A stretch of DNA of 64,000 nt from an uncultured delta proteobacterium (GCA_963754915.1 CAVWHZ010000018.1:279827-343826); one strand, 5' to 3'. Positions 41,373-62,070 are shown, counted from the stretch's first letter. Notes: generated by a model from the letters alone, not told the origin. Numbers and translations are program-made.

Positions 41373-41396
41373 AACGTTCACGAACGCTTACGAACA
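41373..41396. promoter_or_regulatory. Site 1 of the recurring nested-palindromic motif: GAACGTTCACGAACGCTTACGAAC
   Basis: Intergenic, ~260 bp upstream of the LTXXQ-like gene; shares GAACGTTCnCGAACGC with sites 2-5. Confidence 0.5.
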
Positions 41397-41652
41397 CCCG
41401 CTGGACCCGTGCACCGGGAGGAGCGTTCGAGTGATCGCGGGTGCTTGCACGAGCAGGATGTTCGGTACGGTGGGTGCGTATGACTCAGCCGAAGAGAGTC
41501 GCCGGGCCGAGGCCAACTTCGGCGCGGCATGGTCGGGGTGAAAGGAAGTGTACCAATTCGGCGAGATCAGGCGATGGCGTAGTAGCCGCGCTGCCCGGCG
41601 ATGGAGGGATCCGTAGCCTCCGCAGCGAACCTCTTAGTCAATCGGAGCGAAC

Positions 41653-42537
41653 ATGATACTGCCTAGCGTGACTAGACTTTCATTGGTAGCTAGCCTTGGC
41701 TGCCTCCTTAGCCTTTGCGCGACTCGCGCGGCAGAGAGCGAAGCGCCAGAAGCTACCGTTCAGTCGGCCGATGATCAGGCTGCGGCCGAGTTGAAGGAGC
41801 ACCATCGACATCACCATCAAGGGGGCGTCACGCAGTTCATCGCGATGAGCCTCGACACTCTTGGCGCAACTGACAGCAAGCTTCCAAAGATCGAGAAGAT
41901 CCAAACAGACCTCCACGCCTGCATGGCGCCCGCTGCGAGAATTGAGAAGACGCTTCATGTGACTATGGCCGACGGTATTGCCGCCGGGAATATCGATGGG
42001 GCAAAGGTCAACGCGACCATCGCGCAGCTAAGCGCCGCCGCAGGACCGGTGCATGACTGTAGCGCCGCAGCGTTGAATGAGCTGCACGCGATTCTTTCGT
42101 CAACGGAGCGATGGGAACTCGTCGAGAAGGTTCAGGCGCACTGGGAAATCTGGCGCCAGGTCGATCACGAAGCGGAGGCGAGTGGTCGCGAATCGGGTGG
42201 CTGGCTTGCGGAACTCACCAAGGAGTTGAGCCTTACGCAAGGACAAGTCGACAAGATCTCGGCGGCACTTCATAAGGCGTTCGCCACGCTCGGCAAGTTC
42301 GACCGCAAGAAGGTTGACGCCAACGTCCAAGCGTTTGCCGCTGCCTTCGTCCGTGAATCGTTCGATGCAAAATCAATCACTGCGGATGCGACCAGCCGCC
42401 TTGCTGCCCAGGGCGCGAAGCGGATGGCCATCTTCTACGAGACTGTGACTCCTCTATTGAACTCAGAGCAGCGCGCGACGCTGGCTGAGCACCTTCGGCA
42501 GCACGCAAACCACCAACCCGTTGTTTCCGCCAGGTGA
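41653..42537 (+). CDS. Periplasmic LTXXQ-motif protein (Spy/CpxP/ZraP-like), lower GC
   Basis: Signal MILPSVTRLSLVASLGCLLSLCATRAAES; His-rich segment EHHRHHHQG; LTXXQ-like motifs ELSLTQGQVDKISAAL and LLNSEQRATLAEHL. Confidence 0.45.
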   Translation: MILPSVTRLSLVASLGCLLSLCATRAAESEAPEATVQSADDQAAAELKEHHRHHHQGGVTQFIAMSLDTLGATDSKLPKIEKIQTDLHACMAPAARIEKTLHVTMADGIAAGNIDGAKVNATIAQLSAAAGPVHDCSAAALNELHAILSSTERWELVEKVQAHWEIWRQVDHEAEASGRESGGWLAELTKELSLTQGQVDKISAALHKAFATLGKFDRKKVDANVQAFAAAFVRESFDAKSITADATSRLAAQGAKRMAIFYETVTPLLNSEQRATLAEHLRQHANHQPVVSAR

Positions 42538-42545
42538 GGCTCCCT

Positions 42546-42902
42546 ATGACTCGAACTCTCGTGACGATATTTAAAGGCTTTCTGTGGGTGAGCGTAGTCA
42601 CAGCCTCTTTGGCGTCCAGCACCGCCTTGGCGCAGATACAAGTCGAGATCTTCCCTCCCGCCGCGTTCATCGCGACAAGTGCCCCCGTCTACTTCGAGGG
42701 CCACGCAACATATTGGTGGGGAAACCAATGGTACTACCGAGACGGACGCAACTGGCGTGCCTATCGTGAGGAGCCCGCCTATCTCCACGAGTACCGCGGA
42801 CACCACGTGGCTACCAGGCAGCATTACGAGTCACATGGAGGCAACTCCCATCAGCAAGGGAATCAGCATGCGAACGGGAGCCATAGTTCGGAGCACCACT
42901 AG
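42546..42902 (+). CDS. Small secreted aromatic/His-rich protein
   Basis: Signal MTRTLVTIFKGFLWVSVVTASLASSTALA; YFEGHATYWWGNQWYYRDGRNWRAY; C-terminus His/Gln/Asn-rich. Resembles the start of the 63208 gene. Confidence 0.4.
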   Translation: MTRTLVTIFKGFLWVSVVTASLASSTALAQIQVEIFPPAAFIATSAPVYFEGHATYWWGNQWYYRDGRNWRAYREEPAYLHEYRGHHVATRQHYESHGGNSHQQGNQHANGSHSSEHH

Positions 42903-43465
42903 CAGCTTCTTGAGTTAGATGTCCCTCGGCCCTGGTGGCTACCCTCTCGGGTAGCGGCCGGGGCCGAGCTGTCCTTGGGGTCGCGGTCGGGGTCCTGACC
43001 TGGGTAGTCAGGTTGACTCCGGCATTGACTCATTTCGATCAGATCAGGTTGCAGTGCGGTGGCTGCCGAGGTGGACGGCGAGTTGGCTGTGTCCGGGCCC
43101 CCCTCAGGGAACCTTCCGGAGCGATGACGCTCCTCCTCCCAGCTAGAGCTCTTGCGAAGCGCTTCCCAGGCGAGGCTGGTGGGGTAGCTGGGGTGCATCG
43201 TGGCTTGCGCGCCGGTGGCGGAGCATTGCGCGATTGGATGTTCTGGCGACGTTTCGAGTGGCGCCTTCTCCGTGGCGGCGATCGAGTCGGTTCGTAAGCG
43301 TTGTCGGCACTGACCGTGGCGCCATCTCAGTCGGGAGGCACTTGTCTCACCATGCGGGTGCAACGCCGAATTCCCCGGGAGGTCCGCAGAGGGCGGTCCC
43401 GTAGCGTCCCTGGCCGGACCTTCAGCGAGGCCCGCGCCTCGCTTCAGGCGCGCGAGGGTTCCACG

Positions 43466-43786
43466 CTACTTCTTCACCAATAGGTCGTTCTTCACAGTGG
43501 AGACCCCGTGGACGTGCGAAGCCACCTTTCCGGCCAACCGCACGCTCTCAGCAGAGTCGACGAAGCCGCTGAGTTGGACGACGCCCTTATCGGTGCTGAC
43601 GCTGATTTGGAAGGACTTTAGTGACGATTGTTCGAGCAGCGCTGCCTTCACCTTCGTTGTGACGACGGAGTCGTCGATGTACGCGCCGGTGGTCTCGGCG
43701 TACGTCGAGACCGGATACCCAAAGAAGGACACCCCCGACAGAGTGAGGCCGGCGGCACTGATCAAGGTCAACGTAAGCTTGGTCAT
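43466..43786 (-). CDS. BON-domain periplasmic protein (OsmY-like), lower GC
   Basis: Signal MTKLTLTLISAAGLTLSGVSFFG; BON-like core DDSVVTTKVKAALLEQSSLKSFQISVSTDKGVVQLSGFVDSAESVRLAGKVASHVHGVSTVKNDLLV. Confidence 0.65.
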   Translation of the reverse strand: MTKLTLTLISAAGLTLSGVSFFGYPVSTYAETTGAYIDDSVVTTKVKAALLEQSSLKSFQISVSTDKGVVQLSGFVDSAESVRLAGKVASHVHGVSTVKNDLLVKK

Positions 43787-44068
43787 TGCAATGCTCCCTT
43801 TTCACACCTGCTCTTGTTTGAACGACGTAGCAAACAGCTTCCAGCATCGTCCTCACCGCCCTCGCGTGGCCAGGGTCGGGTCCCGCCGATGACGCCATCT
43901 AGTCGTCGGCGAGGATCTCCGAATACCGTCGCGCTCTACCGAAGTTGCGGCTGGTCGACCATTCGTCCTACTTGCTCCATAGTGTCTGCATGCGCTGTGC
44001 CCCTTGATCGGTGGTTCGTGCAGCGCGCGGTATCTTGGCTGGCGAGTAGCTGGACGAAGCCATTGGCT

Positions 44069-44095
44069 GTTCGCGAACGTTCTCGAACGCTCGCG
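44069..44095. promoter_or_regulatory. Site 2 of the recurring motif: GTTCGCGAACGTTCTCGAACGCTCGCG
   Basis: Intergenic between the BON gene and the VOC gene. Confidence 0.5.
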
Positions 44096-44642
44096 CTGGC
44101 CTTGGACCGACCGTCCCCTGGAGGGCGGCTGCCTCGGCGACCGGGAGTCACGGCAGGTGCTTGGGCTCCAGGCGTTTACGCTGCGTGGTTGAAGCCGGCT
44201 CGGGGTGGATGCACCCGCACAGGCCGCCGTTCGAAGTCCCAATGGCTTCCTGCCCTTGGGCCCCGAAAGCTGGCTCGCCCCGTGTCAACGGTTTCGTAGA
44301 GCTTCCGCTCGCGGCCCAGATGAGCCGTGGCTGAGCATTTGGTTCATTCATAGGACCCGCGCGCGAGGTGCGGACGTAAGCGAGCACGGGTCCGCCATCG
44401 TGAAGGGCATGGCAGATGCTTAACAGCAACTTGTCACTTCCAGGGAAGGCCGCCACCTCATCAAATGATCTCACCCATGGCGGTCAAGGGGGGCGGCCGG
44501 GGTTCCATCCCAGTCGAGGACTCGCATGAGCCACCCCGTCGCCCCCAATAGCGAACTCACAACAGAGCGTCCCCACCCGCCTCTGGGCGGATGCGTACAG
44601 GAATGGAGAACTTCCCATCGTGAGAGAAGGAAAGGAGATCCA

Positions 44643-45545
44643 ATGAAGAGATTCCACAGCCCCCTCGTTGCAGCCGCCCTCCTTGTCGGTGCTGGATGCG
44701 CGACGGTTGAGGGGCCACCGCTTGTGTTTCCAGCAGTCGTTGATCCGCCAAGCCCAGAACGTCACATCGGCAAGGTGATATTTGTTGAACTGGTAACGCC
44801 GGACCTCGCCTCCGCGAAGCAGTTCTATGGCGGACTATTTGGGTGGTCGTTCCGGGATATTCAAGCCGGCGCGAGAACGTATGCCGAGGCATCTCTCGGT
44901 GGCCATCCCGTCGCAGGCTTGTTTCACAAGGCCGTACCGTCGGGCGAACATAGGCAGCCAGCGTGGCTGACCTTCATCTCCGCCCGGGATGTCGACGTGG
45001 CCACAAAGACCGCCCTGGAACATGGGGCCAAGGTCCTGTTCGAGCCGCACAGCATCCCAGACCGTGGCCGGGAAGCGGTCTTGGCCGATCCGCAAGGAGC
45101 CGTCTTCGCGGTCCTTGTCTCCAGCAGTGGCGATTCGGCCGACGTCCTGGCCGCACCCGGGGAATGGATTTGGAGCTCGCTCATCACAACCGATCCGAAG
45201 ATCGATGCTGCCTTCTACCAAGCTCTATTCTCCTATGAGATCTTCGATGCGCCCACTGATGCGAGTACGCAGCATCTCATGCTCGCGTCCGACAGCTATG
45301 CTCGCGCGAGCGTGAACACGCTGCCCGCTACCGGGCCCGATTTCCATCCTTACTGGCTCAATTACATACGCGTGCAAGATGCGGTCAGCGTGGTCGCCAA
45401 GGCGGTGGCCCTGGGCGGACGGGTGCTGGTCGAGCCGCGCGTTGATCGCCATGGCGGCAGGGTTGCCGTTCTCGCCGACCCCATGGGCGCACCCTTCGGA
45501 TTGCTTGAATGGCAGGACAGCCAGACCAAGGAGGTGACCAAGTGA
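44643..45545 (+). CDS. VOC-family (glyoxalase/bleomycin-resistance fold) lipoprotein with two VOC domains
   Basis: RBS AAGGAGAT; lipobox LLVGAGCA; two repeats of the VOC pattern (IGKVIFVELVTPDLASAKQFYGGLFGW... and ...SLITTDPKIDAAFYQALFSYEI...). Confidence 0.65.
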   Translation: MKRFHSPLVAAALLVGAGCATVEGPPLVFPAVVDPPSPERHIGKVIFVELVTPDLASAKQFYGGLFGWSFRDIQAGARTYAEASLGGHPVAGLFHKAVPSGEHRQPAWLTFISARDVDVATKTALEHGAKVLFEPHSIPDRGREAVLADPQGAVFAVLVSSSGDSADVLAAPGEWIWSSLITTDPKIDAAFYQALFSYEIFDAPTDASTQHLMLASDSYARASVNTLPATGPDFHPYWLNYIRVQDAVSVVAKAVALGGRVLVEPRVDRHGGRVAVLADPMGAPFGLLEWQDSQTKEVTK

Positions 45546-45883
45546 AGGCCTTACTCGGGTCAGCATTCACCCTAGTGGTTGGGGTAATCACGGTCATGTC
45601 GTCCGGCTGCGCTGTAACCGGCGGCGGGTACGGGCACGAATATGAGGCGGGTTACTATCAATCGTACGGTACTGATTACGGAGGCTGGGGCCCTGGCTAT
45701 AACGTGGGACCGGTGCGCGACGGCGATCATGGGCGAGATCGCGGCGGCGGAGGCCGGCCGCCTCAGCACGGGGGCAACGAACCCGCGCAGCATGCCAAGA
45801 CGCCGGTGCCGGCATCCCGCCCCGTACCGTCTATTCCGTCGGGTTCCCGTTCCGAAGGTGGGTCACGACCGCACGAGCACTAG
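45542..45883 (+). CDS. Small Gly/Tyr-rich lipoprotein
   Basis: GTG start overlaps the upstream stop (GTGA); lipobox VMSSGCAV; GGGYGHEYEAGYYQSYGTDYGGWGPGYN. Confidence 0.35.
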   Translation: MKALLGSAFTLVVGVITVMSSGCAVTGGGYGHEYEAGYYQSYGTDYGGWGPGYNVGPVRDGDHGRDRGGGGRPPQHGGNEPAQHAKTPVPASRPVPSIPSGSRSEGGSRPHEH

Positions 45884-45941
45884 CTGTGTCAGTTAGGCAA
45901 ACGCCATTCAAATGGAAAGTGGAGCAATTGGCCCAATTCCC

Positions 45942-47009
45942 TCAGGGCTTCGCGGATGTCCAGGCCGGATCGTTGGCGAGTTGCTCAGCGAGCCAAGCGC
46001 GAAGGTCCGTACCAGCAGAACTGAAGGCGGCCGGGGTCGGAAGCATCGTGTGGGTGGTCCCGGCGACGACGAAGTACCTGGCGTTGGGAATCGGGTCAAT
46101 GACTCCCTCGAGGCGGCCGATGGCGGCTTCGAACGCCGAGCCATCGACGTACCCGAGAAAGGAGCGGATCACCAAGTCTTGCGCAGATGAGAGAAGCGCG
46201 AGTCGATCGTGCGGGTAACGGCCCGCCAGGACCGGAAAAAGCTTCGAGAGATCGGTCAGGCACTCTGGACAGATAGGAGTGACAGCCCGATCGATCCGCC
46301 ACGCGGCGATCCAGACAGCGAGAAGGGCGGGAGAGATGTCGCTGCCCACGAGAGGCGGACCGGAGTCGTCCACCAAGAGAGCGTCGGCGGCCGGGAAGGT
46401 ATGGCGGAACGAGTCATAATTCAGCAGCGCACCATACCCGCCGGCTGAGGAGCCGGAAACGACGATCGGGTTCGGCACCGGGAAAGCGGCCGAGATCCAC
46501 GGCAGGACGGCCTCGACGTTGACCAGCCCGACGTGATGCCAACGTTGAGTTCCGCCCGAGGCGTCGGGATAGTCGACTACGTTGTTTCCTCCGTGGACGT
46601 CCCCGGTACAGTACGGGATGAAGACGAAACTCATCGAGCGGTACGGATTCAGGGGATCGCTGCGGTCAAGGATCGAGCCGGGCGCCTTCGCTGAGATGAG
46701 TGCCTCGAAGTCAGAGCGGCCGAACGATCCGGACCCGGCGGCATGGGCGACGAAGCAGCTCACGTAGTCGAAGCAGGCACCGCCGCCGGTCAAGAATACG
46801 AGCAACCCTGGACCATCTCCTGGATCAATGCCTATTCCGGTCTGTGAGCCATCGCCGCAGGAGGTTCCGGGGACGTCGACCCAGGTCCAGGTGTTCTGAA
46901 CGAGCGGCGGTAATGACACAAGCGAAGAGCCCGGTGGGCTAGCGCCGCCGCAGGCGGCGAGGAAGACCACTAACAGGGCGCGCGAGCGCGATGCACTGGT
47001 GAAGCTCAT
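45942..47009 (-). CDS. Pectin-acetylesterase/Notum-like esterase lipoprotein
   Basis: Lipobox VVFLAACGG; LLVFLTGGGACFDYVSC...; FIPYCTGDVHGGN; VVSGSSAGGYGALLNYDSF (GxSxG). Confidence 0.5.
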   Translation of the reverse strand: MSFTSASRSRALLVVFLAACGGASPPGSSLVSLPPLVQNTWTWVDVPGTSCGDGSQTGIGIDPGDGPGLLVFLTGGGACFDYVSCFVAHAAGSGSFGRSDFEALISAKAPGSILDRSDPLNPYRSMSFVFIPYCTGDVHGGNNVVDYPDASGGTQRWHHVGLVNVEAVLPWISAAFPVPNPIVVSGSSAGGYGALLNYDSFRHTFPAADALLVDDSGPPLVGSDISPALLAVWIAAWRIDRAVTPICPECLTDLSKLFPVLAGRYPHDRLALLSSAQDLVIRSFLGYVDGSAFEAAIGRLEGVIDPIPNARYFVVAGTTHTMLPTPAAFSSAGTDLRAWLAEQLANDPAWTSAKP

Positions 47010-47105
47010 GCATGCTCACTTACCGGTTGTGGGTCCGCTGCGCCTCTGCATTTTCGTGCCGCGGAGGGCCGTATGTCTCCGACCGCGCGTTCGGTTGCGC
47101 GCATG

Positions 47106-48194
47106 TCAGCGGCTTGGGGTCGAGATTCTCGGCGGCTCAGGAAGGTCACCCAGCATTTCCTCAAATATCTCCAATCGGCACGCGAGCGGCGCATGACCTG
47201 GAGCGAGCGCTTTCCTCAATGGGAATCCGCACGAAATGGCGAACTCGCGCTGGGCGTCGCCAAGCGCTGGATCTGTATCGGACAGGAAAATGGCGTAGGC
47301 CTTCCGTTGGGCCACTTGGCAGAGCCAGGCGCTTGGCGCATCCGAGCGAATGTCGGTGAGGGCCTCCGGGTGGGACGCCGTCCGGCCCATGACGTCGTGA
47401 AACGTAGGGGGTGGATCCTCGTGATAACGTTCGGTGAGAATCCGCCTGAAGTACCCTTGAACCGAGTCGACGGCGAACGAGTGCCAGAAACTGTCCAGGT
47501 TGGAGGTTGCCAGCCGGACGTCGAGCACTGGGTCCAGCACCGCCGCGCGGGTCCACATGCCGCGCTGGAGTGCATCGCGATTCGCAAGCAACGCTTCCAT
47601 CCCGCCGAGCGAGATTCCTACGAATGCGAGGCGGGCCGGAGGGCCAATCCGGCACGCGGCCGCGATCTGGCCAGCCGCGTCGATGGCGCGGCGTGCCTCC
47701 CGAAGCGGATCGAAGTAGATCGGACGCGCCGTCTCGTCCCGGACCGGTGCGAAGGTGGCGAAGCCTCTCTTTGCCCCGACCTCGGCGAAGCGTTCGTTGA
47801 TCCATCCGGCAGGCGGCATCCCAAGGCCCGAGAAGGCGACAACCAGTCCCGTTGCCCCTCGAAGAGGGAACAAGTACCCATAGAGGTGCCCAAGCGCTGT
47901 GCTAACGCGGATGAGTTGCGCCGTCCGTCCCTGACCTCTGATGCCCGCAGGTTCTTGCTGGCACGCTTCCTCCACTGAGATCGCGCCATCGACACCCTCG
48001 GGTTCGCTCACGACCCGCGTCGCATCGGGCCCGAGGGTCACGAGCGAGCAAAGCGCTCCGTCCAGGCCGGCGCCCGCATGGAACAACGGTTCGCCGGAGC
48101 GCGGGGACGCGGGCACGACGGATGGCCACAACCATGAGCACCCGGAGCTTGAGACCGTCAGGACCGCTAGCAGGAGCCAAACGTGCAAGCGCAT
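47106..48194 (-). CDS. Alpha/beta-hydrolase-fold lipoprotein
   Basis: Lipobox LTVSSSGCS; nucleophile elbow FVGISLGGMEAL. Confidence 0.5.
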   Translation of the reverse strand: MRLHVWLLLAVLTVSSSGCSWLWPSVVPASPRSGEPLFHAGAGLDGALCSLVTLGPDATRVVSEPEGVDGAISVEEACQQEPAGIRGQGRTAQLIRVSTALGHLYGYLFPLRGATGLVVAFSGLGMPPAGWINERFAEVGAKRGFATFAPVRDETARPIYFDPLREARRAIDAAGQIAAACRIGPPARLAFVGISLGGMEALLANRDALQRGMWTRAAVLDPVLDVRLATSNLDSFWHSFAVDSVQGYFRRILTERYHEDPPPTFHDVMGRTASHPEALTDIRSDAPSAWLCQVAQRKAYAIFLSDTDPALGDAQREFAISCGFPLRKALAPGHAPLACRLEIFEEMLGDLPEPPRISTPSR

Positions 48195-48673
48195 CGAGGA
48201 TCTCCGTCAGCGCGCCCCGCCGCGGGACGTGGCCAGACAGTGACAGACCAACCGAGCTAGGTAAAGAAGCCACCTCCGCAGGGGTGTCGCGCCAACGCCA
48301 CGTGGCAGGGGAGCGGACCAGACACTCCCAGAACGTGGCAGCGCGACCACCGCGAGATTCGCCGAGATTGCTAAGGCTTCATCCTCGGCAAAGGTTGAAA
48401 GGTACCCACTACCGTCCAGTCTTACGCTCGACGCGCTCAGTCTTCAGCCGGAGCCTGTTGGGGGTCAGTTGCACTTCGCAATTCGCCAACTATCGAGGCA
48501 TATTGGCGCGCTGTGACTCATTGAGAATCCAATCAACCCCCATGCCATTCGGTTTCAGCTCCCGAATGCCATGGCGGCCTGAGGTGGGACGGCACAAATA
48601 GAGAAGGCGGTGCAGCGCAGGACGATCAGGCGCCCGCAGCGCACCAACGTCATATAGCCGAAAGGAAATCTCC

Positions 48674-50006: not shown

Positions 50007-50077
50007 CCAACGTGGCCGGGGCGGCATCGGTACCCCAGCGTGGCTCTCAGACCTTCGCGCCCGCCACGGGGTGGACC

Positions 50078-51151: not shown

Positions 51152-51197
51152 GGCCCAGTGGTCCCTTCGCTGCTATCTTGAATCGTCCAGTCATCCA

Positions 51198-52603: not shown

Positions 52604-54310
52604 TCAACCCGACAGAATGCCGAGACCGATACTGAACCGATATTGTGGATATGTCAGCGGCACGGCGTGGATTTGAGGGACCGGAACGGCAATGTTCAGG
52701 GGGTTGATGATGAGAAGAAGCGCTCGGGAGAGCTTCCACTCCAGCCCAAGAGGGCTTATCCCGCCGTAGAATCCGACTATCCCCTTGCTCGCCCCGTAGA
52801 GCTCCATCATCAGGTACGAAATGCCAAGGTTAACGGTTGTTCGCAGGTTGAAGTTCTCGTACGCCAGCGGAAACCGGAGGATGATTGTGCCATACGTGTT
52901 GATCGTCCCGGCCCGGACGGTGTGGGGTCCGTAGAAGGTGATCCATGGATTCCACTCGACATCCCATCCCAGAGTCCAGTGCGTGCTTACGCGGGCGCGA
53001 AGGCCCAGCTCCACGGCGAACGCCGGCTTGTCGACCGAGGCCGAAGCGCCGAGGTAGCCACCCCAGGCCCCTGCCGACGGATCGCTCGGGCCCGGCTGCG
53101 GCACCGGTACGGTGACCGGCGGCGGCGGCTCGTGCTTGTCGGTTGTGACGGAAGGCTCGCTAATTGCCGTTGGCGACTTGCTCGGCTCCGCAGCGCGCAC
53201 GTTGACGGCCGTGAGAGCGGTTGCGGTCGCAATCATGAACGCTGCGATGGTGAGCGCCCTTGCTCTCCGGCGACGAGCAAGGAGTGCGAGGGCGAGCAGG
53301 GTGCATGCCCCTCCCACGAGATCTAGCCCGCCCGAGGAACAACCGAGAAAGGTAGAGGGGGGGTCCTTGTACTGTCTTTCGGGCGCATCGCACCAGTTGT
53401 TGTCATAGGTACAACCGGGCGAGTAGCTGAGATAGGTGTCTAGCAAGCCATCCACCGCCGCCAGCTTCGCGTCGCCGGTAGCGGTTGGATCGAGCGTGAG
53501 TCGAAGGAGCGCGGCCGACGCCTGCGCCGCAAGTGCGTGCCTCGTCGTTCGAATAGCGTCGGGGTCATTGCAGGCATCGAGCGCGTGGGCATGCGCTGGC
53601 CCGTTGCTTGATTCGTTCAGAGTCCCATCGGCTTGATCGACCCAATCCAAGACCACCGTGACCTTCATCCCATCCGCGGTTCGATACGTGTGGGTGAAGC
53701 TATCTTCCAATGCGTGCATGGCCTGGCCGATGCGAACGTAATAGGTGGGAAGCGACGCCCCGATCTGGCCTCGGAGCGATAGGTAGACCGTGAGCGACGT
53801 TCGCTTGGTGAGATCGGGGGCGCCCTTTGCATCGAGTCCGGTGAGCGCGTCCACGACCCGTCCGCGAATGAACGCGCGACAAGCATTTACCGCGGCTTCG
53901 GACCCACCTGGCTCGTTCTGACCCTGATTTCGAAGGCAGTGTTCCTCCTGACTGTTGGGGTCCCCCTGAACTCCTGCCAGGTTGGTGAGATCGTCCGACG
54001 AACGCCCCTTCAGGTCGTTGTCCCGGACGCTCAAGAGAAGCGTCACGGCGCCTAGGTCTTTCATGTCCTGGTCAGGTGAGAACTCCAGGTCATCGACAAG
54101 GGCTTGCTCATTGGCCGTGAGGGGCAGAGGGGCAGCATTCGGAGTGTCGAGGCGCACTGCTCGAAGCGCCTCGGACGTCACCTTCTCGTGGCAGCCGGCC
54201 GTGACGATGGTCGATACCGTATAGGCACTTGCCGAAGTAGGTACGAGGAGTACTGACAGCGAAATCGCAGAAACGCGCGCCACGAGGGCACCCAGAGAAA
54301 CAGTCTTCAT
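52604..54310 (-). CDS. Secreted protein carrying an internal MYXO-CTERM-like sorting motif, followed in frame by ~205 more residues (second signal-like segment, Pro-rich linker, beta-rich domain)
   Basis: RBS AAGGAG before ATG 54310; signal MKTVSLGALVARVSAISLSVLLVPTSASA; ...FLGCSSGGLDLVGGACTLLALALLARRRRARA then LTIAAFMIATATALTAVNVRAAEP...; C-terminus ...YRFSIGLGILSG. Confidence 0.5.
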   Translation of the reverse strand: MKTVSLGALVARVSAISLSVLLVPTSASAYTVSTIVTAGCHEKVTSEALRAVRLDTPNAAPLPLTANEQALVDDLEFSPDQDMKDLGAVTLLLSVRDNDLKGRSSDDLTNLAGVQGDPNSQEEHCLRNQGQNEPGGSEAAVNACRAFIRGRVVDALTGLDAKGAPDLTKRTSLTVYLSLRGQIGASLPTYYVRIGQAMHALEDSFTHTYRTADGMKVTVVLDWVDQADGTLNESSNGPAHAHALDACNDPDAIRTTRHALAAQASAALLRLTLDPTATGDAKLAAVDGLLDTYLSYSPGCTYDNNWCDAPERQYKDPPSTFLGCSSGGLDLVGGACTLLALALLARRRRARALTIAAFMIATATALTAVNVRAAEPSKSPTAISEPSVTTDKHEPPPPVTVPVPQPGPSDPSAGAWGGYLGASASVDKPAFAVELGLRARVSTHWTLGWDVEWNPWITFYGPHTVRAGTINTYGTIILRFPLAYENFNLRTTVNLGISYLMMELYGASKGIVGFYGGISPLGLEWKLSRALLLIINPLNIAVPVPQIHAVPLTYPQYRFSIGLGILSG

Positions 54311-54837
54311 CGAGGTCTCTCCTTGTCGTGCCTTGCGGCAGGCGGTAGAGGCGCGCGGCGTTCGTCGTAGCCGGTTGACCTTAGTCGCCACGCTCACGGC
54401 GCGAGCGAGATTTTGATCCGCCCGAGCAAGGTCTGGCCTGGCCACTACGAGTGCGGCTAGCCGGAGCGGTTGCTCGCTCTCATCCGCTCTGCCGACGGTC
54501 CTCGCTTGCGGGTCGATGACCGGCAGCCTTTCAACGGCGAGCGCGCTCGTCTCCATTACTGGGCAATCCCTCTCTTCCTGCGTCGAGTAGGACGAGGGCC
54601 AAGCACGCGGACCGCCGCGCCGAAGTACCCCAGAGGCATCCACAAGCATTCGGCGGGCCACTGTGACGCAGTTGGACCACCGTCCCCGGCTGCCTGCGCG
54701 GCTTGCGGCGCAGCGGCCGCGGCGGTGGGGGCGGGGCGGCATGCGTGTTGCTTGGCGCAATGATCATAGAGACCCCGGAACCCAGCCGCGCGATGCGGAA
54801 ATGAGCGCTCGTGACTGGATTCCAGCGGTCACCGACC

Positions 54838-54860
54838 GTTCGCGAACGTTCGCGAACGCG
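54838..54860. promoter_or_regulatory. Site 3 of the recurring motif: GTTCGCGAACGTTCGCGAACGCG (a perfect tandem of the 10-bp palindrome GTTCGCGAAC), immediately 5' of the hybrid kinase start
   Basis: The motif ends at the GTG (54860) of the 4.2-kb kinase ORF. Confidence 0.55.
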
Positions 54861-57800
54861 TGAGAGAACGAATGAGCAAGCCAGTCACACCCGGCACCAG
54901 CGTGATTCCCAAGGCAGGCCGGCCCCACTCCCGGCGAACGGGATTGGCAAGCACATCGTTCCCCGTGGTGGGCGTTGGTGCGTCGGCCGGCGGGCTCGAT
55001 GCGTTTCGCCAACTCCTGGCGCACGTTCCGGAAGACGCGGGCCTTGCGCTTGTGCTCGTGCAACACCTGGAGCCGAAGCGGGCGAGCCTCCTGAGCGAGG
55101 CGCTAGGTCGCGCCACCAAGATGAAGGTCTCCCAGGCTGAGGACGGGGATCGGATCGAAGCCAATCGCGTGTACGTGATCCCGCCCGGTGCCCAGATGAC
55201 GATAGACCATGGCACCTTGCGACTGTCGCCCCGCAGCGGTGAGGTGCAGAGGCCGCACCTGCCCATCGACCACTTCTTTCGATCGTTGGCCGTCGATCGG
55301 GGAAGGCGTTCCATCGGCGTGGTCCTCTCGGGAACCGCGTCCGACGGGACCGAGGGGCTGGCTGCGATCCGAGAACATGGGGGGATCACCTTTGCTCAGG
55401 ACCCCCGGTCCGCGCGGTTCGGAGAGATGCCGCAAAACGCCATCACCGCCGGAGTGGTCGACTACAGCTTGCCGCTGCCCGCTCTTGGCGAGGAACTCAG
55501 CAGGCTGGCCCAGCACCCCTACTTGCGCAGGCTCGAGCCGGTGCCGCCCACGCCGGCCGGTGCGGCGTCCCTTGCGAAGATCTACGGTCTTGTGCGCGGC
55601 GCCTGCGGCGTTGATTTCGGCGAGTACAAGCCGGGGACGTTCAAGAGGCGACTCGCGCGCCGAATGGTGGTCCGGGGAGCGCGGGGCATCGCCGAGTACT
55701 TGTCCTTGCTCCGTGAGGACGCCGGCGAGGTCCGCGCCCTTCATGACGACCTGCTCATTCAGGTGACGTCGTTCTTCCGTGACAAGGATGGGTTCGAGGA
55801 ACTCAAGGAGACCGCGCTGCCACGCGTCCTGAAGGACAAGGCCGTCGGGGCGCCCATTCGCGCCTGGGTAGTAGGCTGCTCCACCGGCGAGGAGGCGTAT
55901 TCCCTCGCCATGTCGATCATCGAGTTCCTTGGCGAAGAGCGTGCAGTTCACCCCATTCTCGTCTTTGGCTCCGACTTGAGCAGCAAGGCGATCGAACATG
56001 CGCGCGCCGGGATGTACTCCGACGCCGCGATGCAGGAAGTCAGCGATGAGCGCCGCAGCCGCTTCTTCGTCAGGGCGGATCTGGGCTGGCGCGTCAACCA
56101 GGCGCTGCGCGAGCTATGCGTGTTTGCCCAGCACGACGTCGCGCGTGATCCCCCATTCTCGAAGCTCGATGTGGTGAGTTGCCGGAACGTCCTCATCTAT
56201 TTCGGCCATGGGCTACAGCGGCGAGTCCTTACGACCTTCCATCACTGTCTGAACCAGCCCGGGTACCTCCTGCTCGGTCGCAGTGAGAACGTCTCTGGCG
56301 CTCCGCGACTCTTTGCGCCAGCCACGCCGAGCGGCAAGCTCTTCGCGCGCGAGGCTGTGCAGAGCACCTTCCGGCTCATGCCCCGTGTCGCTGCGAGCCC
56401 CTCGGCGCACGGTCCATTCGCGGGGGAGACGACCGGCCACACGCGAAGCGATGGAGGCCTGGCGCAGCACGTCGATGCCATCGTGCTGGGGCGATATGGA
56501 CCGCCCGGAGTCGTGGTGAACGACCGGCTCGAGGTCGTGCAATTTCGGGGGCGCACGGGACCCTACCTGGAGCCTCCCGCAGGGGAGCCGCAGACCAATG
56601 TTCTCAAGATGGCGCGGGCCGGGCTTCGCGGCCCGCTTCGAGTAGCTCTCTCCCAGGCTCGGAAGACCTCCGCGGTCGTACGGAAGGAGCACGTTGACGT
56701 AGACCTCGACGGTTCCCGGCGCACTTTCGATCTCCTTGTGCTGCCCTCCCGGATGTCCGGGACTAGCGACGAGCGGTTGTTCGTGGTGCTTTTCGAGGAG
56801 CGCGCCTCAAGGCCGGCGAAGCGCTCGGGAAAGCTGCGTCGCCAGGGCGCGGCGCCCGGCGACCCGGGCGCATCGCTCCGGCTCGAGGCGGAACTCGCAG
56901 TGACCCAGGAATCCCTCGGTTCCCTCATCGAGGAGCACGGCCGCGCGAACGACGAGCTTGCATCCGCCAACACGGAGTTCGTCTCGGTGAACGAGGAGCT
57001 CCAGAGCATGAACGAGGAGCTGGAGACGGCGAAGGAAGAGCTGCAGGCCACGAACGAGGAGCTCACGACGGTGAACGACGAGCTCAATGGGCGCAACCAG
57101 GAACTGCAGCTCGTCAACACCGACCTCGTGAACCTGCTCGAGACCGTCGACATCCCCATCATCATTCTCGACGCGAGCCGGCGGATCCGCCGCTTCACGC
57201 CACAGGCGGGCGCGTTCCTAAAACTGACTTCGGCGGCCGTTGGGGAGCCGATCGGGACCGTCGCGCTTCATTTGCATGCCCCGGACCTAGAGCTCTGGGT
57301 CGCACAGACCATGCAAACCGGTGCGATGGTGGAGTCGGAAGTTCAGGACCGTGCCGACCGCTGGCACCGAATGCAGATCCGTCCCCACCGCGCGCTGGAC
57401 GGCCGTGCCGACGGGGCCATCATCTCGCTCGTGGATATCCACGCCCTGAAGCACGATGTCGCGGATGCCGAGTGGGAGCGCGACTATGCCCGCAACATCG
57501 TCGAGGCAGTGCAAATTCCACTCGTCGTCATCGACGGGCAACTCGGTATCATATCGGCGAACGAGGCCTTTTTCACGACCCTGGGTATGACCTCGGCGCA
57601 AGTCGAGGGACATGGCTTCTTCGAAATCGGCGGCTGCTGCTGGGACACCCCAGAGCTGCGGCGCTCCCTCGGGCAGGTGCTCGCTGAGGACGCACACTTC
57701 CGGGGGCTTGAGATCGAGCGCGACTTCCCCGGGGCAGGGCACCGGACGATGTCCCTCAGTGCGCGCTCGGTCAAATCGCGGACGGCGACGAACATGATCC

Positions 57801-59077
57801 TCCTCGCTATCGAGGATGTCACTGAGCGGATCCAGGGGGAGAAGCTTCGGGCGGAGCTGCTCGAACGGGCCGAGCGGGCTCAGAACCTCGCCGAGCACGC
57901 GAACGAGGCCAAGGACCACTTCCTTGCCATGCTCTCGCACGAACTCCGCACTCCGCTAACGTCCCTCCTCCTACAGGCAGAGCTATTGCGCGCGGGCATT
58001 CTCGACCCGGCGAAGCTGAAGCGGGTGAGCGCGACCATCGAGCGCAGCGCGAAGCTCCAGCTGAAGCTCGTCGACGAGCTGCTGGATGTGTCCCGCATCA
58101 TCGCCGGCAAGCTGCGCATCGAGGATCAGTGGGTGGATCTGGGGCAAGTGGTCCTGGCGGCTCTCGAGTTCCTGAAGGGGCCAGCAGAGGCGAAGTCCTT
58201 GCGGGTTGCGACCGATGTCCGGGCCGCGGTCCCCCGCTTCCGCGGCGATCCTGTGCGCCTCCAGCAGGTCGTCGCGAACCTGCTCGCCAACTCCATCAAG
58301 GCCTCCCCCGAAGGCGGTTACCTTGGGGTGAAACTCGAACGTGTGGATGGAAGTGCGCGTCTCACGGTAACCGACACGGGGCGTGGGATTGGTCCCGAGT
58401 TGCTACCCCGAATCTTCGACCGGTTTGTGCAGGGCGATGGGGGGCACACGAGCCATGGGGGCCTTGGACTCGGGTTGGCCATCGCGCGCCACATCGTGGA
58501 ACTTCACGGCGGAACCATCCAGGCGGAGAGCCCGGGGAGAGGCCTTGGCGCGACCTTCACGGCCACGCTTCCCCTGCGCGACGCGAAGGACGTGCCCCTT
58601 GACGGCACCGGTGAACGGAGTGCGGCTGAGAACGCCGGCCACTCCGCGGCGGACGGGCAAGGTCTCGCGGCGGTGCGAGTCCTGGTTATCGACGATGACG
58701 TCGTTCGAGAGACCGTCGCCGACTTACTCACCCGAGAGGGCGCTGAGGTCAGCACCTGCGCGTCGGTTGAAGCCGGCCTCATAGCGGTGGAGGCCTTTCA
58801 TCCGGACGTCATTGTGTGTGACATCGCCATGCCCAACGCCGACGGCTACGACTTCATCGGAAGGCTTCGGGCGGGGGACGGCGGGCGGGAGAACAACATT
58901 CCCGCCATTGCCTTCACGGCGCTCGCTGGTGACGGGGAACGTGATCGCTGCCTTGCCGCGGGGTTTCAGGCGCACCTGGCAAAGCCCGCGTCGGGCGCCG
59001 CCCTTCTTGTTCTCCTTCAATCCGTTCTTGGCCGGTCGAAAGGTGCCCTTCAGCGCGGGACCTCTCGCGCGAACTGA
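54860..59077 (+). CDS. CheB methylesterase / CheR methyltransferase fusion with PAS domains, HisKA/HATPase kinase core and C-terminal receiver (hybrid sensor kinase, 1405 aa)
   Basis: CheB: VVGVGASAGGLDAF...GTASDGTEG. CheR: GEYKPGTFKRRL...AWVVGCSTGEEAYSLAMS. Coiled-coil NEEL repeats. H-box FLAMLSHELRTPLTS. G-boxes DTGRGIGPE...GGLGLGLAI. REC: VLVIDDDVV...DVIVCDIAMPNADGYDF...AKP. Confidence 0.85.
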   Translation: MRERMSKPVTPGTSVIPKAGRPHSRRTGLASTSFPVVGVGASAGGLDAFRQLLAHVPEDAGLALVLVQHLEPKRASLLSEALGRATKMKVSQAEDGDRIEANRVYVIPPGAQMTIDHGTLRLSPRSGEVQRPHLPIDHFFRSLAVDRGRRSIGVVLSGTASDGTEGLAAIREHGGITFAQDPRSARFGEMPQNAITAGVVDYSLPLPALGEELSRLAQHPYLRRLEPVPPTPAGAASLAKIYGLVRGACGVDFGEYKPGTFKRRLARRMVVRGARGIAEYLSLLREDAGEVRALHDDLLIQVTSFFRDKDGFEELKETALPRVLKDKAVGAPIRAWVVGCSTGEEAYSLAMSIIEFLGEERAVHPILVFGSDLSSKAIEHARAGMYSDAAMQEVSDERRSRFFVRADLGWRVNQALRELCVFAQHDVARDPPFSKLDVVSCRNVLIYFGHGLQRRVLTTFHHCLNQPGYLLLGRSENVSGAPRLFAPATPSGKLFAREAVQSTFRLMPRVAASPSAHGPFAGETTGHTRSDGGLAQHVDAIVLGRYGPPGVVVNDRLEVVQFRGRTGPYLEPPAGEPQTNVLKMARAGLRGPLRVALSQARKTSAVVRKEHVDVDLDGSRRTFDLLVLPSRMSGTSDERLFVVLFEERASRPAKRSGKLRRQGAAPGDPGASLRLEAELAVTQESLGSLIEEHGRANDELASANTEFVSVNEELQSMNEELETAKEELQATNEELTTVNDELNGRNQELQLVNTDLVNLLETVDIPIIILDASRRIRRFTPQAGAFLKLTSAAVGEPIGTVALHLHAPDLELWVAQTMQTGAMVESEVQDRADRWHRMQIRPHRALDGRADGAIISLVDIHALKHDVADAEWERDYARNIVEAVQIPLVVIDGQLGIISANEAFFTTLGMTSAQVEGHGFFEIGGCCWDTPELRRSLGQVLAEDAHFRGLEIERDFPGAGHRTMSLSARSVKSRTATNMILLAIEDVTERIQGEKLRAELLERAERAQNLAEHANEAKDHFLAMLSHELRTPLTSLLLQAELLRAGILDPAKLKRVSATIERSAKLQLKLVDELLDVSRIIAGKLRIEDQWVDLGQVVLAALEFLKGPAEAKSLRVATDVRAAVPRFRGDPVRLQQVVANLLANSIKASPEGGYLGVKLERVDGSARLTVTDTGRGIGPELLPRIFDRFVQGDGGHTSHGGLGLGLAIARHIVELHGGTIQAESPGRGLGATFTATLPLRDAKDVPLDGTGERSAAENAGHSAADGQGLAAVRVLVIDDDVVRETVADLLTREGAEVSTCASVEAGLIAVEAFHPDVIVCDIAMPNADGYDFIGRLRAGDGGRENNIPAIAFTALAGDGERDRCLAAGFQAHLAKPASGAALLVLLQSVLGRSKGALQRGTSRAN

Positions 59078-59128
59078 GGCGCTCGCTGCTGAGCGGCCTC
59101 TGGTCCCTATGGGGGCTTTTAGCCCTGA

Positions 59129-59163
59129 CCCCGAACGTTCGCTCTTACGCCCCGAACGTTCAG
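59129..59163. promoter_or_regulatory. Site 4 of the recurring motif, a variant: CCGAACGTTCGCTCTTACGCCCCGAACGTTCAGG (direct repeat of CCCGAACGTTC, period 22)
   Basis: Intergenic between the hybrid kinase and the sigma54 EBP; a TAGAAT hexamer lies ~25 nt downstream. Confidence 0.45.
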
Positions 59164-59249
59164 GGCGCCTACGGTCGTCGGCTGCTAGAATGTTGTCGCT
59201 CCCCTAGGCGCCTACCATTTCGGTCCGCCCCTCCCGGTGCGGAGAATCT

Positions 59250-60566
59250 ATGCTACTGCGGAGCCCCGAGGTACGGGCGCGAGCGCCCGATGCGCCGCTC
59301 CAGCGGGCGCTTGTCTTGGCCTTCCCTCGCGACAGCCGTCGCGCGACGCAGAGCCGCGCAATTCCTCGCGAAGGTGTGGTTCTCGGGCGCGGCGTCTCAG
59401 TGTTCGACCGCCCATTCGACGACCCAGAGATGTCGATCCAGCACGCCGAGATCAGGATCGAGAGCGGGACCGCCAACATACGAGATCTCGGGAGCCAGGC
59501 GGGTACGGGGATCAACGGCCAACTGCTGCACGGTACGCACCCTCTTGTTCAAGGGGACGTGCTGCGCGTTGGCGACACCTTGGTCGTCTACTCGCGCTCG
59601 ACTGGCGCGGAAGAGGACGAACCCAAGGCCGGTGAGGAGCCAGAGCTCACGGGCATGAGCCCCTCGATCGCGGCCATCCGGCGCAGCATCGACGCCGTCG
59701 CGCCGCACAGGCGTACGGTGGTCATCACTGGTGAGACCGGCACCGGTAAGGAGATCGTTGCGCGCCAGGTTCACCGCCACAGCGGCAGGTCGGGGCCGTT
59801 CGTGGCCGTGAGCTGCGGCGCGTTCACCGAGGGCTTGCTCGCGAGCGAGCTGTTCGGCCATGTCCGCGGCGCCTTCACGGGCGCCGTGCAGGCCCAGCAG
59901 GGCCTCTTCCGATCCGCTCGCGGAGGGACGCTGCTCCTCGACGACGTCGCAGAGATCCCCCTGTCGCTCCAGCCAACGCTCCTGCGCGTGCTGGAGACCT
60001 GGCAGGTTCGCCCGGTTGGAAGCACGCGCGACGTCGACATCGATGTACGGGTCGTCGCCACTACCAATCGCGAACTCCTTGCCATGGTGCAGGAGGGGCT
60101 GTTCCGATCGGACTTGTACGCGCGGCTGGCGCAGTGGACCATCCGGCTGCCGCCGCTGCGGGAGCGGCGCGAGGACATCCCGGCGCTAACGAACGCCCTC
60201 CTCGGACGGTGTGACGCCCCGGGTCGGCCACTCACGCCGGATCTTCAGGAGGCGCTGCTAATCCACGACTGGCCGATGAACGTGCGTTGGCTACTCAACG
60301 TACTGTCGGTTGCGGTCATCGCGACGCCGAGCGGCGCACTGGCGCTCAGCGAGGAGGTGCTGTCAGCTCTTCGGAGGGACCTCCCAGAAAGCGCGGTTCC
60401 CCAGCGCGAAGCTCAGATGCCCGGCAAGGCGGGCCTGGAGGAGCTCCTCGGCCGCTTCCACGGTCGGGTAGCTGAGATGGCGCGCCACCTGGGAATCACG
60501 AGACCCAAGCTTTACCGGGCCCTCTGGGCCGAGGGCCTCGAGCCGGGGCAATTTCGCGGACGCTGA
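59250..60566 (+). CDS. Sigma54-dependent transcriptional activator (EBP) with N-terminal FHA domain
   Basis: FHA: GRGVSVFDRPFDDPEMSIQHAEIRIESGTANIRDLGSQAGTGINGQLL. AAA+ core: ITGETGTGKEIVARQVH...GAFTGA...; C-terminal HTH. Confidence 0.85.
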   Translation: MLLRSPEVRARAPDAPLQRALVLAFPRDSRRATQSRAIPREGVVLGRGVSVFDRPFDDPEMSIQHAEIRIESGTANIRDLGSQAGTGINGQLLHGTHPLVQGDVLRVGDTLVVYSRSTGAEEDEPKAGEEPELTGMSPSIAAIRRSIDAVAPHRRTVVITGETGTGKEIVARQVHRHSGRSGPFVAVSCGAFTEGLLASELFGHVRGAFTGAVQAQQGLFRSARGGTLLLDDVAEIPLSLQPTLLRVLETWQVRPVGSTRDVDIDVRVVATTNRELLAMVQEGLFRSDLYARLAQWTIRLPPLRERREDIPALTNALLGRCDAPGRPLTPDLQEALLIHDWPMNVRWLLNVLSVAVIATPSGALALSEEVLSALRRDLPESAVPQREAQMPGKAGLEELLGRFHGRVAEMARHLGITRPKLYRALWAEGLEPGQFRGR

Positions 60567-60768
60567 GCCGCCGGGCTGCTCCCTAACAGCGAACCGCTAA
60601 TGGGCACGATTCTGGCACTACATGAACCTGAAACAGGTGCCGCGAGGAAGAAGGTCCCTCCAGATGGGCCCGCGTGAGCCATCGCCCTCCCCGACGGGGG
60701 CAGACTCGCCGCGTGCCACCCTGACCGACGTAAACGGCTCAACGGGATGAAAGGCGGCGAGATCAAGG

Positions 60769-61494
60769 ATGAGAACCAGCGGCGGCAGGGGCAGTCGAGA
60801 CCTCGAGGACCTGTCGCATTACTTCAAGGAACTCCAGAAGTATCGGCCGCTGACGCGAATCGAAGAGCACACGCTTGCCGTGCGAGCCGGCCAGGGTGAC
60901 GCCTCCGCCGAGCAGAAGCTCGTTCGACACAACTTAGCCATTGTCGTTGCCATCGCACGCAACCAGCGCCGCGGCACCGTCCGGCTAGACGACCTGGTCC
61001 AGGAGGGGAGTGTTGGCCTCATGCGCGCAGTCCGGAAGTTTGACCCACACGCTGGGACACGGTTCTCCACCTACGCCGTTTGGTGGATCCGAGCGTACGT
61101 GGGCAAGTACTTGAAGGAGGCACGCTCGACGGTGCGTCCCCGGAGCGGGGCCACTGCGCAAACTGACGTTTCTCTCGACGGCGCCGTGAGCGACCAGTCG
61201 GAAGCGACCCACCTCGAGCTTCTCGAGGACGACGGCATCGGTCCGGAAGGTCACTATCTCTCAATCGAGAGCGACCGAGCGGTGCGCGACGCTCTTGCCA
61301 AGGTGCGCAAGCGCATCGGTTCGCTTGGCTGGGACATCCTTCGCGACAGGCTGCAGGAAGACTCTCCCAAGACGCTCGCCGAACTTGGCGAGCGGTGGAA
61401 CGTGTCCCGCGAGCGGGTCCGCCAAGTCGAACTCAGGACGAAGCTCTTCCTGCGTGGTTATCTCAAGCCCTTGTCGGTCGAGACAGCCGCATAG
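60769..61494 (+). CDS. Sigma-70-family RNA polymerase sigma factor (~241 aa; regions 2 and 4 clear)
   Basis: Region 2: LVRHNLAIVVAIARNQRRGTVRLDDLVQEGSVGLMRAVRKFD...FSTYAVWWIRAYV. Region 4: TLAELGERWNVSRERVRQVELRTKLFL. Confidence 0.75.
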   Translation: MRTSGGRGSRDLEDLSHYFKELQKYRPLTRIEEHTLAVRAGQGDASAEQKLVRHNLAIVVAIARNQRRGTVRLDDLVQEGSVGLMRAVRKFDPHAGTRFSTYAVWWIRAYVGKYLKEARSTVRPRSGATAQTDVSLDGAVSDQSEATHLELLEDDGIGPEGHYLSIESDRAVRDALAKVRKRIGSLGWDILRDRLQEDSPKTLAELGERWNVSRERVRQVELRTKLFLRGYLKPLSVETAA

Positions 61495-62048
61495 GTCGTC
61501 TGGGGACAATGCGCAGTCTGGGGCCAACTGTGATCTCTCCCGCGCCCGCGCTCAACAAGCTCCTCCAGCGCTTGCCATGGCCGGGCTCAATATCGAACTG
61601 GCTGACGAGGCGGGGCGAAGCGCCCACGGAATCGGGCCCTGTTCTCTGCTGGGCCGTGTACCTTGAGACGCCGGCGCCCGGAGGCTCCTCAGTCGAGATG
61701 GTTGGTCTCTATGCTTCTGAGCAGAACGCCCAATCCGCCCTGGCCCTCTGGGAAGCTGAGCTGGCGACGCCCTTTGCGCATGGAGCGCGCCCGTCCTCGC
61801 AGCAACCCGATTCTTAGCGCGAGCCATGTCGCCGCCCTCCCGGGCTTGTAGATCTCGGGGGACTCTATCGAGGCGAGTGGACGTACCCAAGGCTCGATGT
61901 GTCGGCGTTGCTCGGGCGGCTTGCGCGTCTGTGCGAGCGCGACGTGCTGGCTAGGACCTACGCCTCGGAGAGGGCCCTTGTGAGGTGTAACAGCAGCGTC
62001 GGTGCTCTCAGGACGGGCACATGACACTGGCCTTAAGCCCTTCTCGTC

Positions 62049-62070
62049 GTTCGCGAACGTTCACGAACGC
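62049..62070. promoter_or_regulatory. Site 5 of the recurring motif: GTTCGCGAACGTTCACGAACGC
   Basis: Intergenic, ~110 bp upstream of the lmo0937-type small membrane protein gene and ~400 bp upstream of the second SYLF gene. Confidence 0.5.

Follow-up and report, generated by a model that had tools for sequence, protein, structure and literature searches.

Phased palindromic arrays as candidate enhancers of an FHA-domain sigma-54 activator in a Myxococcota genome fragment

A 64,000-nt stretch of DNA from an uncultured delta proteobacterium (GCA_963754915.1 CAVWHZ010000018.1:279827-343826; hereafter the window) carries a short palindromic motif at five sites, and these arrays are probably, with a likelihood of roughly 70% in our estimate, the upstream activating sequences (UAS), or enhancers, of the sigma-54 enhancer-binding protein (EBP) encoded among them at 59250-60566 (+). 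This protein, with an FHA domain, a sigma-54 AAA+ domain carrying GAFTGA, and a helix-turn-helix (HTH) domain of the HTH_8 family, is the proposed binder of the arrays and would activate envelope and stress genes from sigma-54 promoters. The original prediction had suggested an operator or an EBP UAS which defines a local regulon. The EBP UAS agrees with the promoter spacing, the conservation, and the EBP co-occurrence described below; the regulon is, however, not only local, as the arrays are conserved across lineages of the Myxococcota.

Sequence and position of the arrays

The unit of the motif is the 8-bp palindrome GAACGTTC. Site 1 (GAACGTTCacGAACGCTTacGAAC, 41372-41395, three units), site 2 (GTTCGCGAACGTTCTCGAACGCTC, 44069-44092), site 3 (GTTCGCGAACGTTCGCGAACGC, 54838-54861), and site 5 (GTTCGCGAACGTTCACGAACGCTC, 62049-62072) consist of units resembling GAACGTTC in 10-bp phase, of which the central one or the first is perfect and the flanking ones are partial, and site 4 (59133-59161) consists of two GAACGTTC octamers 21 bp apart; none of the sites is assigned a strand. 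Dyad symmetry with multiple units in 10-bp or 21-bp phase is the arrangement looked for in an enhancer. All five copies had been noticed earlier and were found at their places with sequences as described. The 22 nt said to be nearly identical in sites 2, 3, and 5 proved to be an exact match of GTTCGCGAACGTTCNCGAACGC in all three (44069, 54838, and 62049), site 3 is a perfect tandem of the 10-bp palindrome GTTCGCGAAC, and sites 1 and 4 are variants with GCT(C)TTACG common to both. The intergenic location claimed for all copies holds once the starts of two over-extended open reading frames (ORFs) are corrected to near 54313 and to 41653.

The 22-mer is present three times in the 64-kb window against 0 expected, with no match within 3 mismatches in any of 100 dinucleotide-preserving shuffles. 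The core octamer occurs six times (41372, 44075, 54844, 59133, 59154, and 62055) against 1.13 expected, a number reached in 0 of 100 shuffles; every occurrence falls within the five reported sites, and there is none in the first 41 kb. A relaxed scan of the window found no further strong array and added only a possible sixth, degenerate site, AACGCTTACGAAC (43290-43302, -), whose 13 nt are identical to part of site 1. It lies within an apparently non-coding stretch (42903-43465), no sigma-54 promoter was found near it, and it could be either a site in decay or an accessory one.

A palindromic sequence of this kind could extrude or fold, and it has to be asked whether the motif, having no part in the activation of transcription, is instead a dispersed repeat (a repetitive extragenic palindrome or a miniature inverted-repeat transposable element, MITE), a structural hairpin of DNA or RNA, or a site for partition or replication. 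The 20-mer GTTCGNGAACGTTCNCGAAC is also found in unrelated phyla, and two copies in other loci (L028 and L050) share a flank of ~200 nt, as a repeat would. This explanation is nevertheless very improbable and already largely refuted: homology among the copies in the window ends at 24 nt on repeat-family extension, with unrelated flanks; different loci resemble each other in nothing but the motif, save in orthologous regions; a search of the whole window with Rfam covariance models gave no match at the gathering thresholds; and the motif keeps its position with respect to promoters and orthologous genes. The earlier description as a short site and not a MITE was thus correct.

Sigma-54 promoters and the genes they face

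The spacing between arrays and sigma-54 promoters was counted in 26 exact sites, 3 from the window and 23 from Myxococcota genome loci. A promoter was required to contain GG-N10-GC and was scored by a weighted match to TGGCACG-N4-TTGCW, with a score of at least 7 for the spacing counts; this rule replaced a loose 3-mismatch search, which was uninformative (235 matches against 234 expected). Distances were taken from the motif centre, and the expectation came from random centres in the same sequences. There are 19 outward-facing promoters 60-140 nt from the centre against 1.26 expected, a 15-fold excess, and 7 promoters, not all of them independent, at 74-77 nt against 0.12 expected. Plausible starts, each an ATG with a ribosome-binding site (RBS), of secreted or membrane proteins follow these promoters. 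For the longer spacings (86-137 nt) helical phasing is suggestive only, the array centre being ambiguous by 10 bp. In the 45 loci from outside the Myxococcota in which this 20-mer also occurs, only three promoters fall within 60-140 nt. Among the sites of the window, an outward -24 GG/-12 GC element within ~60-200 bp is found at 77 nt (sites 2 and 5), 79 nt (site 1, weak), and 188 nt (site 3).

At site 5, the sigma-54 promoter GGGCACGATGGATGCT (62136-62151, +) lies 77 nt from the site centre and is followed by an RBS and the gene of a 49-aa membrane protein of the lmo0937 family (DUF5670; 62183-62332, +). It is predicted to drive an operon (62183-63999) of this gene, a SYLF lipoprotein gene (62478-63026, +), and the gene of an uncharacterized protein that begins at 63109 (+) and continues past the window end. 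The related locus L008 has kept the array, the -24/-12 element, and the leader with its RBS, and the spacer is conserved in length, not in sequence. Such a spacer argues for a stereospecific constraint. The lmo0937/DUF5670 promoter of L149 and L150 stands at 76 nt. The comparison of orthologous intergenic regions that had been proposed earlier thus found array and promoter kept, both here and upstream of the kinase gene discussed below.

Site 2 has a sigma-54-like promoter on either side. GGGCACAGCGCATGCA (43987-44002, -), 77 nt from the site centre, faces a BON-domain (OsmY-like) gene (43466-43786, -), which is a candidate target, and GGGCATGGCAGATGCT (44405-44420, +), 326 nt from the site, lies upstream of the gene of a two-domain glyoxalase-fold (VOC) lipoprotein (start at 44526 or 44643, end at 45545, +). 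Just upstream of GGGCATGGCAGATGCT, an inverted repeat GGACCCG...CGGGTCC (44353-44392) encloses CGTAAGCG, the reverse of CGCTTACG of sites 1 and 4. At site 1, the weak sigma-54-like promoter CGGTACGGTGGGTGCG (41463-41478, +) is 79 nt from the site centre and is tentatively assigned to the gene of an LTXXQ/Spy-like periplasmic protein with a signal peptide (41653-42537, +; true start 41653), which together with a 122-aa ORF (42534-42902, +) forms the candidate target operon of this site (41653-42902). A scan of 41-46 kb for the sigma-70 consensus found nothing.

Site 3 lies 12 nt before the ATG of a CheB-CheR-PAS-HisKA-HATPase-REC hybrid histidine kinase gene (54872-59077, +). It had been described as lying 5' of the kinase, and its position is as described, with the correction that it is inside the 5' leader, downstream of the strong sigma-54 promoter CGGCATGCGTGTTGCT (54737-54752, +), which reads through the array into the kinase. 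This promoter is conserved in L149 (CGGCATGCCCGTTGCT), where the upstream region aligns with that of the window with promoter, array, and ATG all conserved; the same order of promoter, array, and ATG is found in L054, L061, and L149. The array in the leader could act as a downstream enhancer, a roadblock, or both. Site 3 probably also serves the divergent gene of a secreted 569-aa protein without a Pfam or NCBIfam family (52604-54313, -), for which the mechanically called ORF of 718 aa was over-extended and a signal peptide is found at the true start near 54313. Its sigma-54-like promoter TGGCCCGCCGAATGCT (54645-54660, -), 188 nt from the site, resembles CGGCCCTCCGATTGCA, which precedes the 569-aa orthologue in L026. 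The orthologue in L026 follows an array and a sigma-54 promoter, and the one in L008 follows the lmo0937 gene.

Site 4 is located between the kinase and EBP genes, as had been reported, and it overlies a putative sigma-70-type -10 element, not a sigma-54 promoter. No sigma-54 promoter was found before the EBP gene, and what resembles one in L008 is wrongly spaced. The putative promoter element is the extended -10-like TGcTAGAAT (59183-59191, +), 24 nt after the proximal octamer. An octamer pair 21-22 bp apart, with a -10-like TAnnnN 24-26 nt later, precedes the EBP gene in the window and in L008, L053, L072, and L073, the hexamers being TAGAAT with an upstream TG (window), TAGACT (L008), TACACC (L072), TATGGT (L073), and TACCAC (L053). 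L152 has the same octamer pair before its EBP gene, and thus the pair is present in six genomes. With this hexamer as the -10 element, the centres of the octamers would fall near -41 and -62. The pair over a sigma-70-type promoter probably reflects autoregulation of the EBP, whether positive or negative, and an alternative sigma factor could also read the promoter.

Positions of about -41 and -62 are the classic class II and class I activator positions, the kinase array 12 nt before the ATG is operator-like, and dyad symmetry suits any dimeric regulator. All this would fit an operator of a conventional sigma-70-type regulator (XRE, TetR, MerR, or similar), with the sigma-54 promoters being incidental or a matter of co-regulation. 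Such a reading is nonetheless quite unlikely. Apart from the EBP and the sigma factor discussed below, no DNA-binding protein was found to be conserved next to the arrays, no conventional regulator of that kind being among the conserved neighbours, and no role was found for the XRE regulator that had been named as a possible binder. Further, the 15-fold excess of sigma-54 promoters and their fixed spacing of 74-77 nt would be left unexplained.

The gene downstream of the EBP encodes a sigma-70-family factor (60769-61494, +) with regions 1.2, 2, and 4, whose best NCBIfam resemblance is to RpoH/RpoS, below the family cut-offs. The sigma-54 promoter GGGCACGATTCTGGCA (60602-60617, +) lies between the two genes, and its counterparts, with a full array, precede the sigma-factor gene in L149 (AGGCACGAAACTGGCA) and L030. 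The RpoH/RpoS-like sigma factor is probably a target.

Association with the FHA-domain EBP

An exact scan for the 20-mer GTTCGNGAACGTTCNCGAAC, with one genome per species, returned 68 loci, the source genome not being among the matches. About 23 of the 68 belong to the Myxococcota (Anaeromyxobacteraceae, Polyangiaceae, Sandaracinaceae, Kofleriaceae, and metagenome-assembled genomes (MAGs) labelled "delta proteobacterium"), and in these the motif lies beside homologues of the kinase, EBP, 569-aa protein, sigma-factor, SYLF, BON, and PAP2 genes. The orthologous genes that follow an array elsewhere are those of the kinase, the EBP, the 569-aa protein, the sigma factor, SYLF, the lmo0937 family, and PAP2. 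In L149, one array separates the divergent BON-Mla and DUF5670-AI-2E operons and has sigma-54 promoters 55 and 76 nt away, and further arrays in this locus precede the sigma-factor, kinase, and EBP genes.

The association with the EBP is also seen in loci selected by EBP homology alone, independently of the motif, for which 558 EBP relatives were found. Six of the seven loci of close EBP orthologues (from metagenomes, 62-84% identity) carry GAACGTTC, usually in arrays such as GAACGTCCGTGAACGTTCGCGAACGC, and all four longer orthologue loci carry arrays, which amounts to 10 of 11 loci and 27 GAACGTTC matches in ~103 kb. The 73 paralogue loci (~514 kb) have 8 isolated octamers, which is the chance level. 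The EBP of the window has the Pfam domains Sigma54_activat, FHA, and HTH_8, with GAFTGA and Walker A motifs in its sequence. The EBP orthologues associated with the motif share its recognition-helix region, G(I/V)(T/S)RPKLYRLLW; this region differs in a 47%-identical paralogue, and the 11.7-kb locus of that paralogue is without GAACGTTC.

The numerous EBP paralogues of the Myxococcota raise the question whether the arrays are sigma-54 enhancers bound by a different paralogue encoded elsewhere, so that the adjacent FHA-EBP would merely be regulated through them. The 558 relatives speak for this, as does L019, which has two EBP genes adjacent, and three of the motif-selected loci (L004, L055, and L032) contain only EBPs of 33-38% identity. 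We regard it as unlikely all the same, since arrays are present at 10 of 11 loci picked by EBP orthology and not at paralogue loci, the octamer pair before the EBP gene is kept in six genomes, and conservation of the recognition helix tracks the presence of the motif.

If the arrays are the enhancers of the adjacent FHA-EBP, its C-terminal Fis-type HTH would bind them, with dimers on adjacent units along one helix face, and the three units might correspond to the three dimers of a hexamer. The bound dimers would assemble into an active AAA+ ring, DNA looping would join the ring to the sigma-54 holoenzyme at a -24/-12 promoter, usually 75-140 bp away, and ATP hydrolysis would open the promoter. 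The predicted targets are the lmo0937/SYLF operon, the BON/OsmY-like gene, the LTXXQ/Spy-like operon, the secreted 569-aa protein, and the CheB/CheR hybrid kinase. With the sigma factor as a probable target, a cascade from sigma-54 to a sigma-70-family factor would result, and as the kinase and the sigma factor would themselves be targets, there would be feedback. As for the inducing signal, the FHA domain implies an activity set by phosphothreonine (Ser/Thr kinase) signalling, not by phosphorylation of a receiver domain.

Several points weigh against assigning the arrays to this EBP and its targets. The link to this particular EBP rests, as far as sequence can tell, on co-occurrence and synteny. 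The motif-selected loci were chosen by the motif itself, although the EBP-selected set agrees with them. The lmo0937/DUF5670 promoter, orthologous in the window, L008, and L029, accounts for several of the 74-77-nt cases, and these are not independent. The octamer is short for a dimer with Fis-type HTHs, and the 10-bp periodicity of an array leaves the register of the half-sites ambiguous. Among the individual targets, the sole promoter match at site 1 is weak (score 6), the tie of the promoter at 44405 to site 2 is uncertain at 326 nt, and the sigma-factor promoter in the window has upstream of it only TTTCGCGGACGCT (60552-60564, no strand), a weak, degenerate partial unit that lies 44 nt from it, where the EBP gene ends. 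Finally, rpoN was not among the ORFs scanned, which are those of the window; the presence of the EBP implies an rpoN in the genome.

The genes near arrays or EBP genes in related loci include those for CsbD, YtxH, DUF948, HSP20, a cold-shock domain protein, Mla, AI-2E, PLD, and SYLF, and the neighbouring gene set, judged from its sequence families, is of a general or envelope stress flavour. In L149, the closest of the long relatives, the BON gene is followed directly and on its own strand by an MlaD/MlaE/ABC lipid-transport operon (L149:6626-9964). This operon stands behind an array and a sigma-54 promoter, which hints that outer-membrane lipid homeostasis is part of the regulon there.

Some motif-bearing loci present features of their own. 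L011, L037, L039, L045, and L064 (contigs labelled Alloprevotella, Paludibacteraceae, Coriobacteriales, or Coriobacteriia; ~60-65% G+C) have a region in common in which copies of GTTCGCGAAC recur at irregular spacing and no sigma-54 promoter is present. This has the look of a separate element, iteron-like or mobile, and possibly of mis-binned DNA. The ~200-nt repeat of L028:1907-2108 and L050:4800-4994, both from one Polyangiaceae MAG, is 82% identical, includes the motif, has no sigma-54 promoter, and may be a genome-specific duplicated segment or the end of a mobile element. L007 (Streptosporangiaceae MAG) and L031 (Gemmatimonadales MAG) are 99.8% identical over the 420 nt compared, which suggests cross-bin contamination or a very recent transfer.

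In the rest of the window, whose genes were identified by Pfam and NCBIfam scans and whose G+C content is 61-67%, a DUF2378 gene (28286-28939) belongs to a paralogous family typical of Myxococcales and supports the placement of the window in the Myxococcota. Its left half has an insertion-sequence patch with two transposase genes back to back, a DDE_3/HTH gene (23949-25019, -) and an IS110-family gene (25164-26345, +). The best match to the sigma-54 consensus, TGGCACGACGGATGCT (39337-39352), is inside a low-complexity ORF without a Pfam family (37064-39775), has no array nearby, and is probably an intragenic chance match or an orphan site. Within the hybrid kinase gene, four units of ~30 nt (CGAGGAGCT...GAACGA(C/G)GAGCT) at 56929-57084, with spacings of 21, 42, and 63 nt, fall in a linker with a weak Laminin_II (coiled-coil) match. 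Two candidate assignments were dropped: that of the VOC protein as the AfsK-binding protein KbpA, which came from a sub-threshold NCBIfam match for a protein that is apparently a lipoprotein with a signal peptide, and that of a common family for the 122-aa ORF and the small secreted proteins behind the arrays of L019 and L053, among which BLASTP found no similarity.

Significance and comparison with known systems

The Myxococcota have unusually many sigma-54 activators, many of which bear an FHA domain and few of which have a defined site or regulon. The enhancer motif and regulon defined here for one FHA-EBP orthologue group appear to be undescribed. The array sequence differs from every operator known to us, and limited literature searches (the motif string, FHA EBPs in Myxococcus, and Anaeromyxobacter RpoN) returned only eukaryotic, primer, or unrelated matches. 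The result is a testable triplet of a site (phased GAACGTTC arrays), a regulator (the FHA-EBP group, including an annotated protein of Anaeromyxobacter oryzae), and envelope or stress targets, and the motif with the -24/-12 rule can be used to annotate the regulon in metagenome-assembled genomes. It predicts a cascade from sigma-54 to an alternative sigma factor together with a feedback loop through a CheB/CheR-fused hybrid kinase; we know of no established function for kinases of this type.

A wider proposal, conceivable although on balance doubtful, would make the arrays, the FHA-EBP, the CheB/CheR kinase, and the RpoH/RpoS-like sigma factor the joint parts of a master switch by which much of the Myxococcota controls its general or envelope stress response. 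If this were true, the system would be a phosphothreonine-gated, sigma-54-driven counterpart of SigB, EcfG, and RpoS, with a regulon including BON/OsmY, CsbD, YtxH, DUF948, lmo0937/DUF5670, HSP20, SYLF, and Mla. The gene set, as a general stress regulon, would fill a gap beside those three, and the sigma-54-to-sigma-70-family cascade would be joined by an enhancer inside the kinase leader for feedback.

Two known elements resemble the arrays in sequence. The Gram-positive LexA (Cheo) box CGAACRNRYGTTYC likewise has GAAC/GTTC half-sites. It is built as GAAC-N4-GTTC, whereas the arrays have GAAC-N0-GTTC or GTTC-N2-GAAC, and envelope or stress genes with no SOS genes are found downstream; the motif had earlier been described as neither a Cheo box nor LexA-like. 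The eukaryotic heat-shock element TTCnnGAAnnTTC, of at least 3 inverted nGAAn units, is literally matched by the array, with 7 matches of TTCNNGAANNTTC against 0.33 expected, and the genes next to the arrays are stress-related. This is a resemblance of sequence only: the context here is that of bacterial sigma-54 promoters, and no HSF_DNA-bind match was found among the ~50 proteins scanned in the window.

Other systems resemble the proposed one in architecture. Work of Jelsbak, Givskov, and Kaiser from 2005 (PNAS 102:3010; cited in PMC12288465) is said to deal with FHA-domain EBPs of Myxococcus xanthus, which reportedly act in fruiting-body development. These share with the EBP of the window the architecture of FHA, sigma-54 AAA+, and HTH as well as the phylum, but their reported role is in development and not on the gene set of the window, and the exact 20-mer was found in no Myxococcus-type genome in the species-representative scan. 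The ftr enhancers of Caulobacter flagellar genes, bound by FlbD, can lie downstream of the sigma-54 promoter which they serve, as does the array in the kinase leader; FlbD, unlike the FHA-EBP, is a receiver-type EBP, and its site sequence and regulon differ.

PspF is a sigma-54 EBP for envelope stress which has no N-terminal sensory domain and is held by PspA, and its enhancers overlap its own sigma-70 promoter. The gene set is likewise of the envelope-stress type, and PspF models are among the NCBIfam matches of the EBP, below the cut-off. The differences are the N-terminal FHA domain and the enhancer sequence here, and no PspA-family match was found in the window or in L149-L152.

In NtrC-type enhancers, such as that of glnAp2, tandem dyad sites ~100-140 bp upstream of a sigma-54 promoter nucleate EBP oligomers, and autoregulation at a sigma-70-type promoter is known for NtrC as well as for PspF. 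Similarly, the arrays offer several dyad sites in phase, at about -100 relative to a -24/-12 promoter, their proposed binder has an AAA+ domain with GAFTGA and a C-terminal Fis-type HTH, and sites over the sigma-70-type promoter of the regulatory gene suggest autoregulation. The NtrC site is TGCACC-N5-GGTGCA, whereas the unit here is an unrelated 8-bp palindrome at strict 10-bp phase, with an FHA input instead of a receiver and with envelope and stress targets instead of those of nitrogen assimilation.

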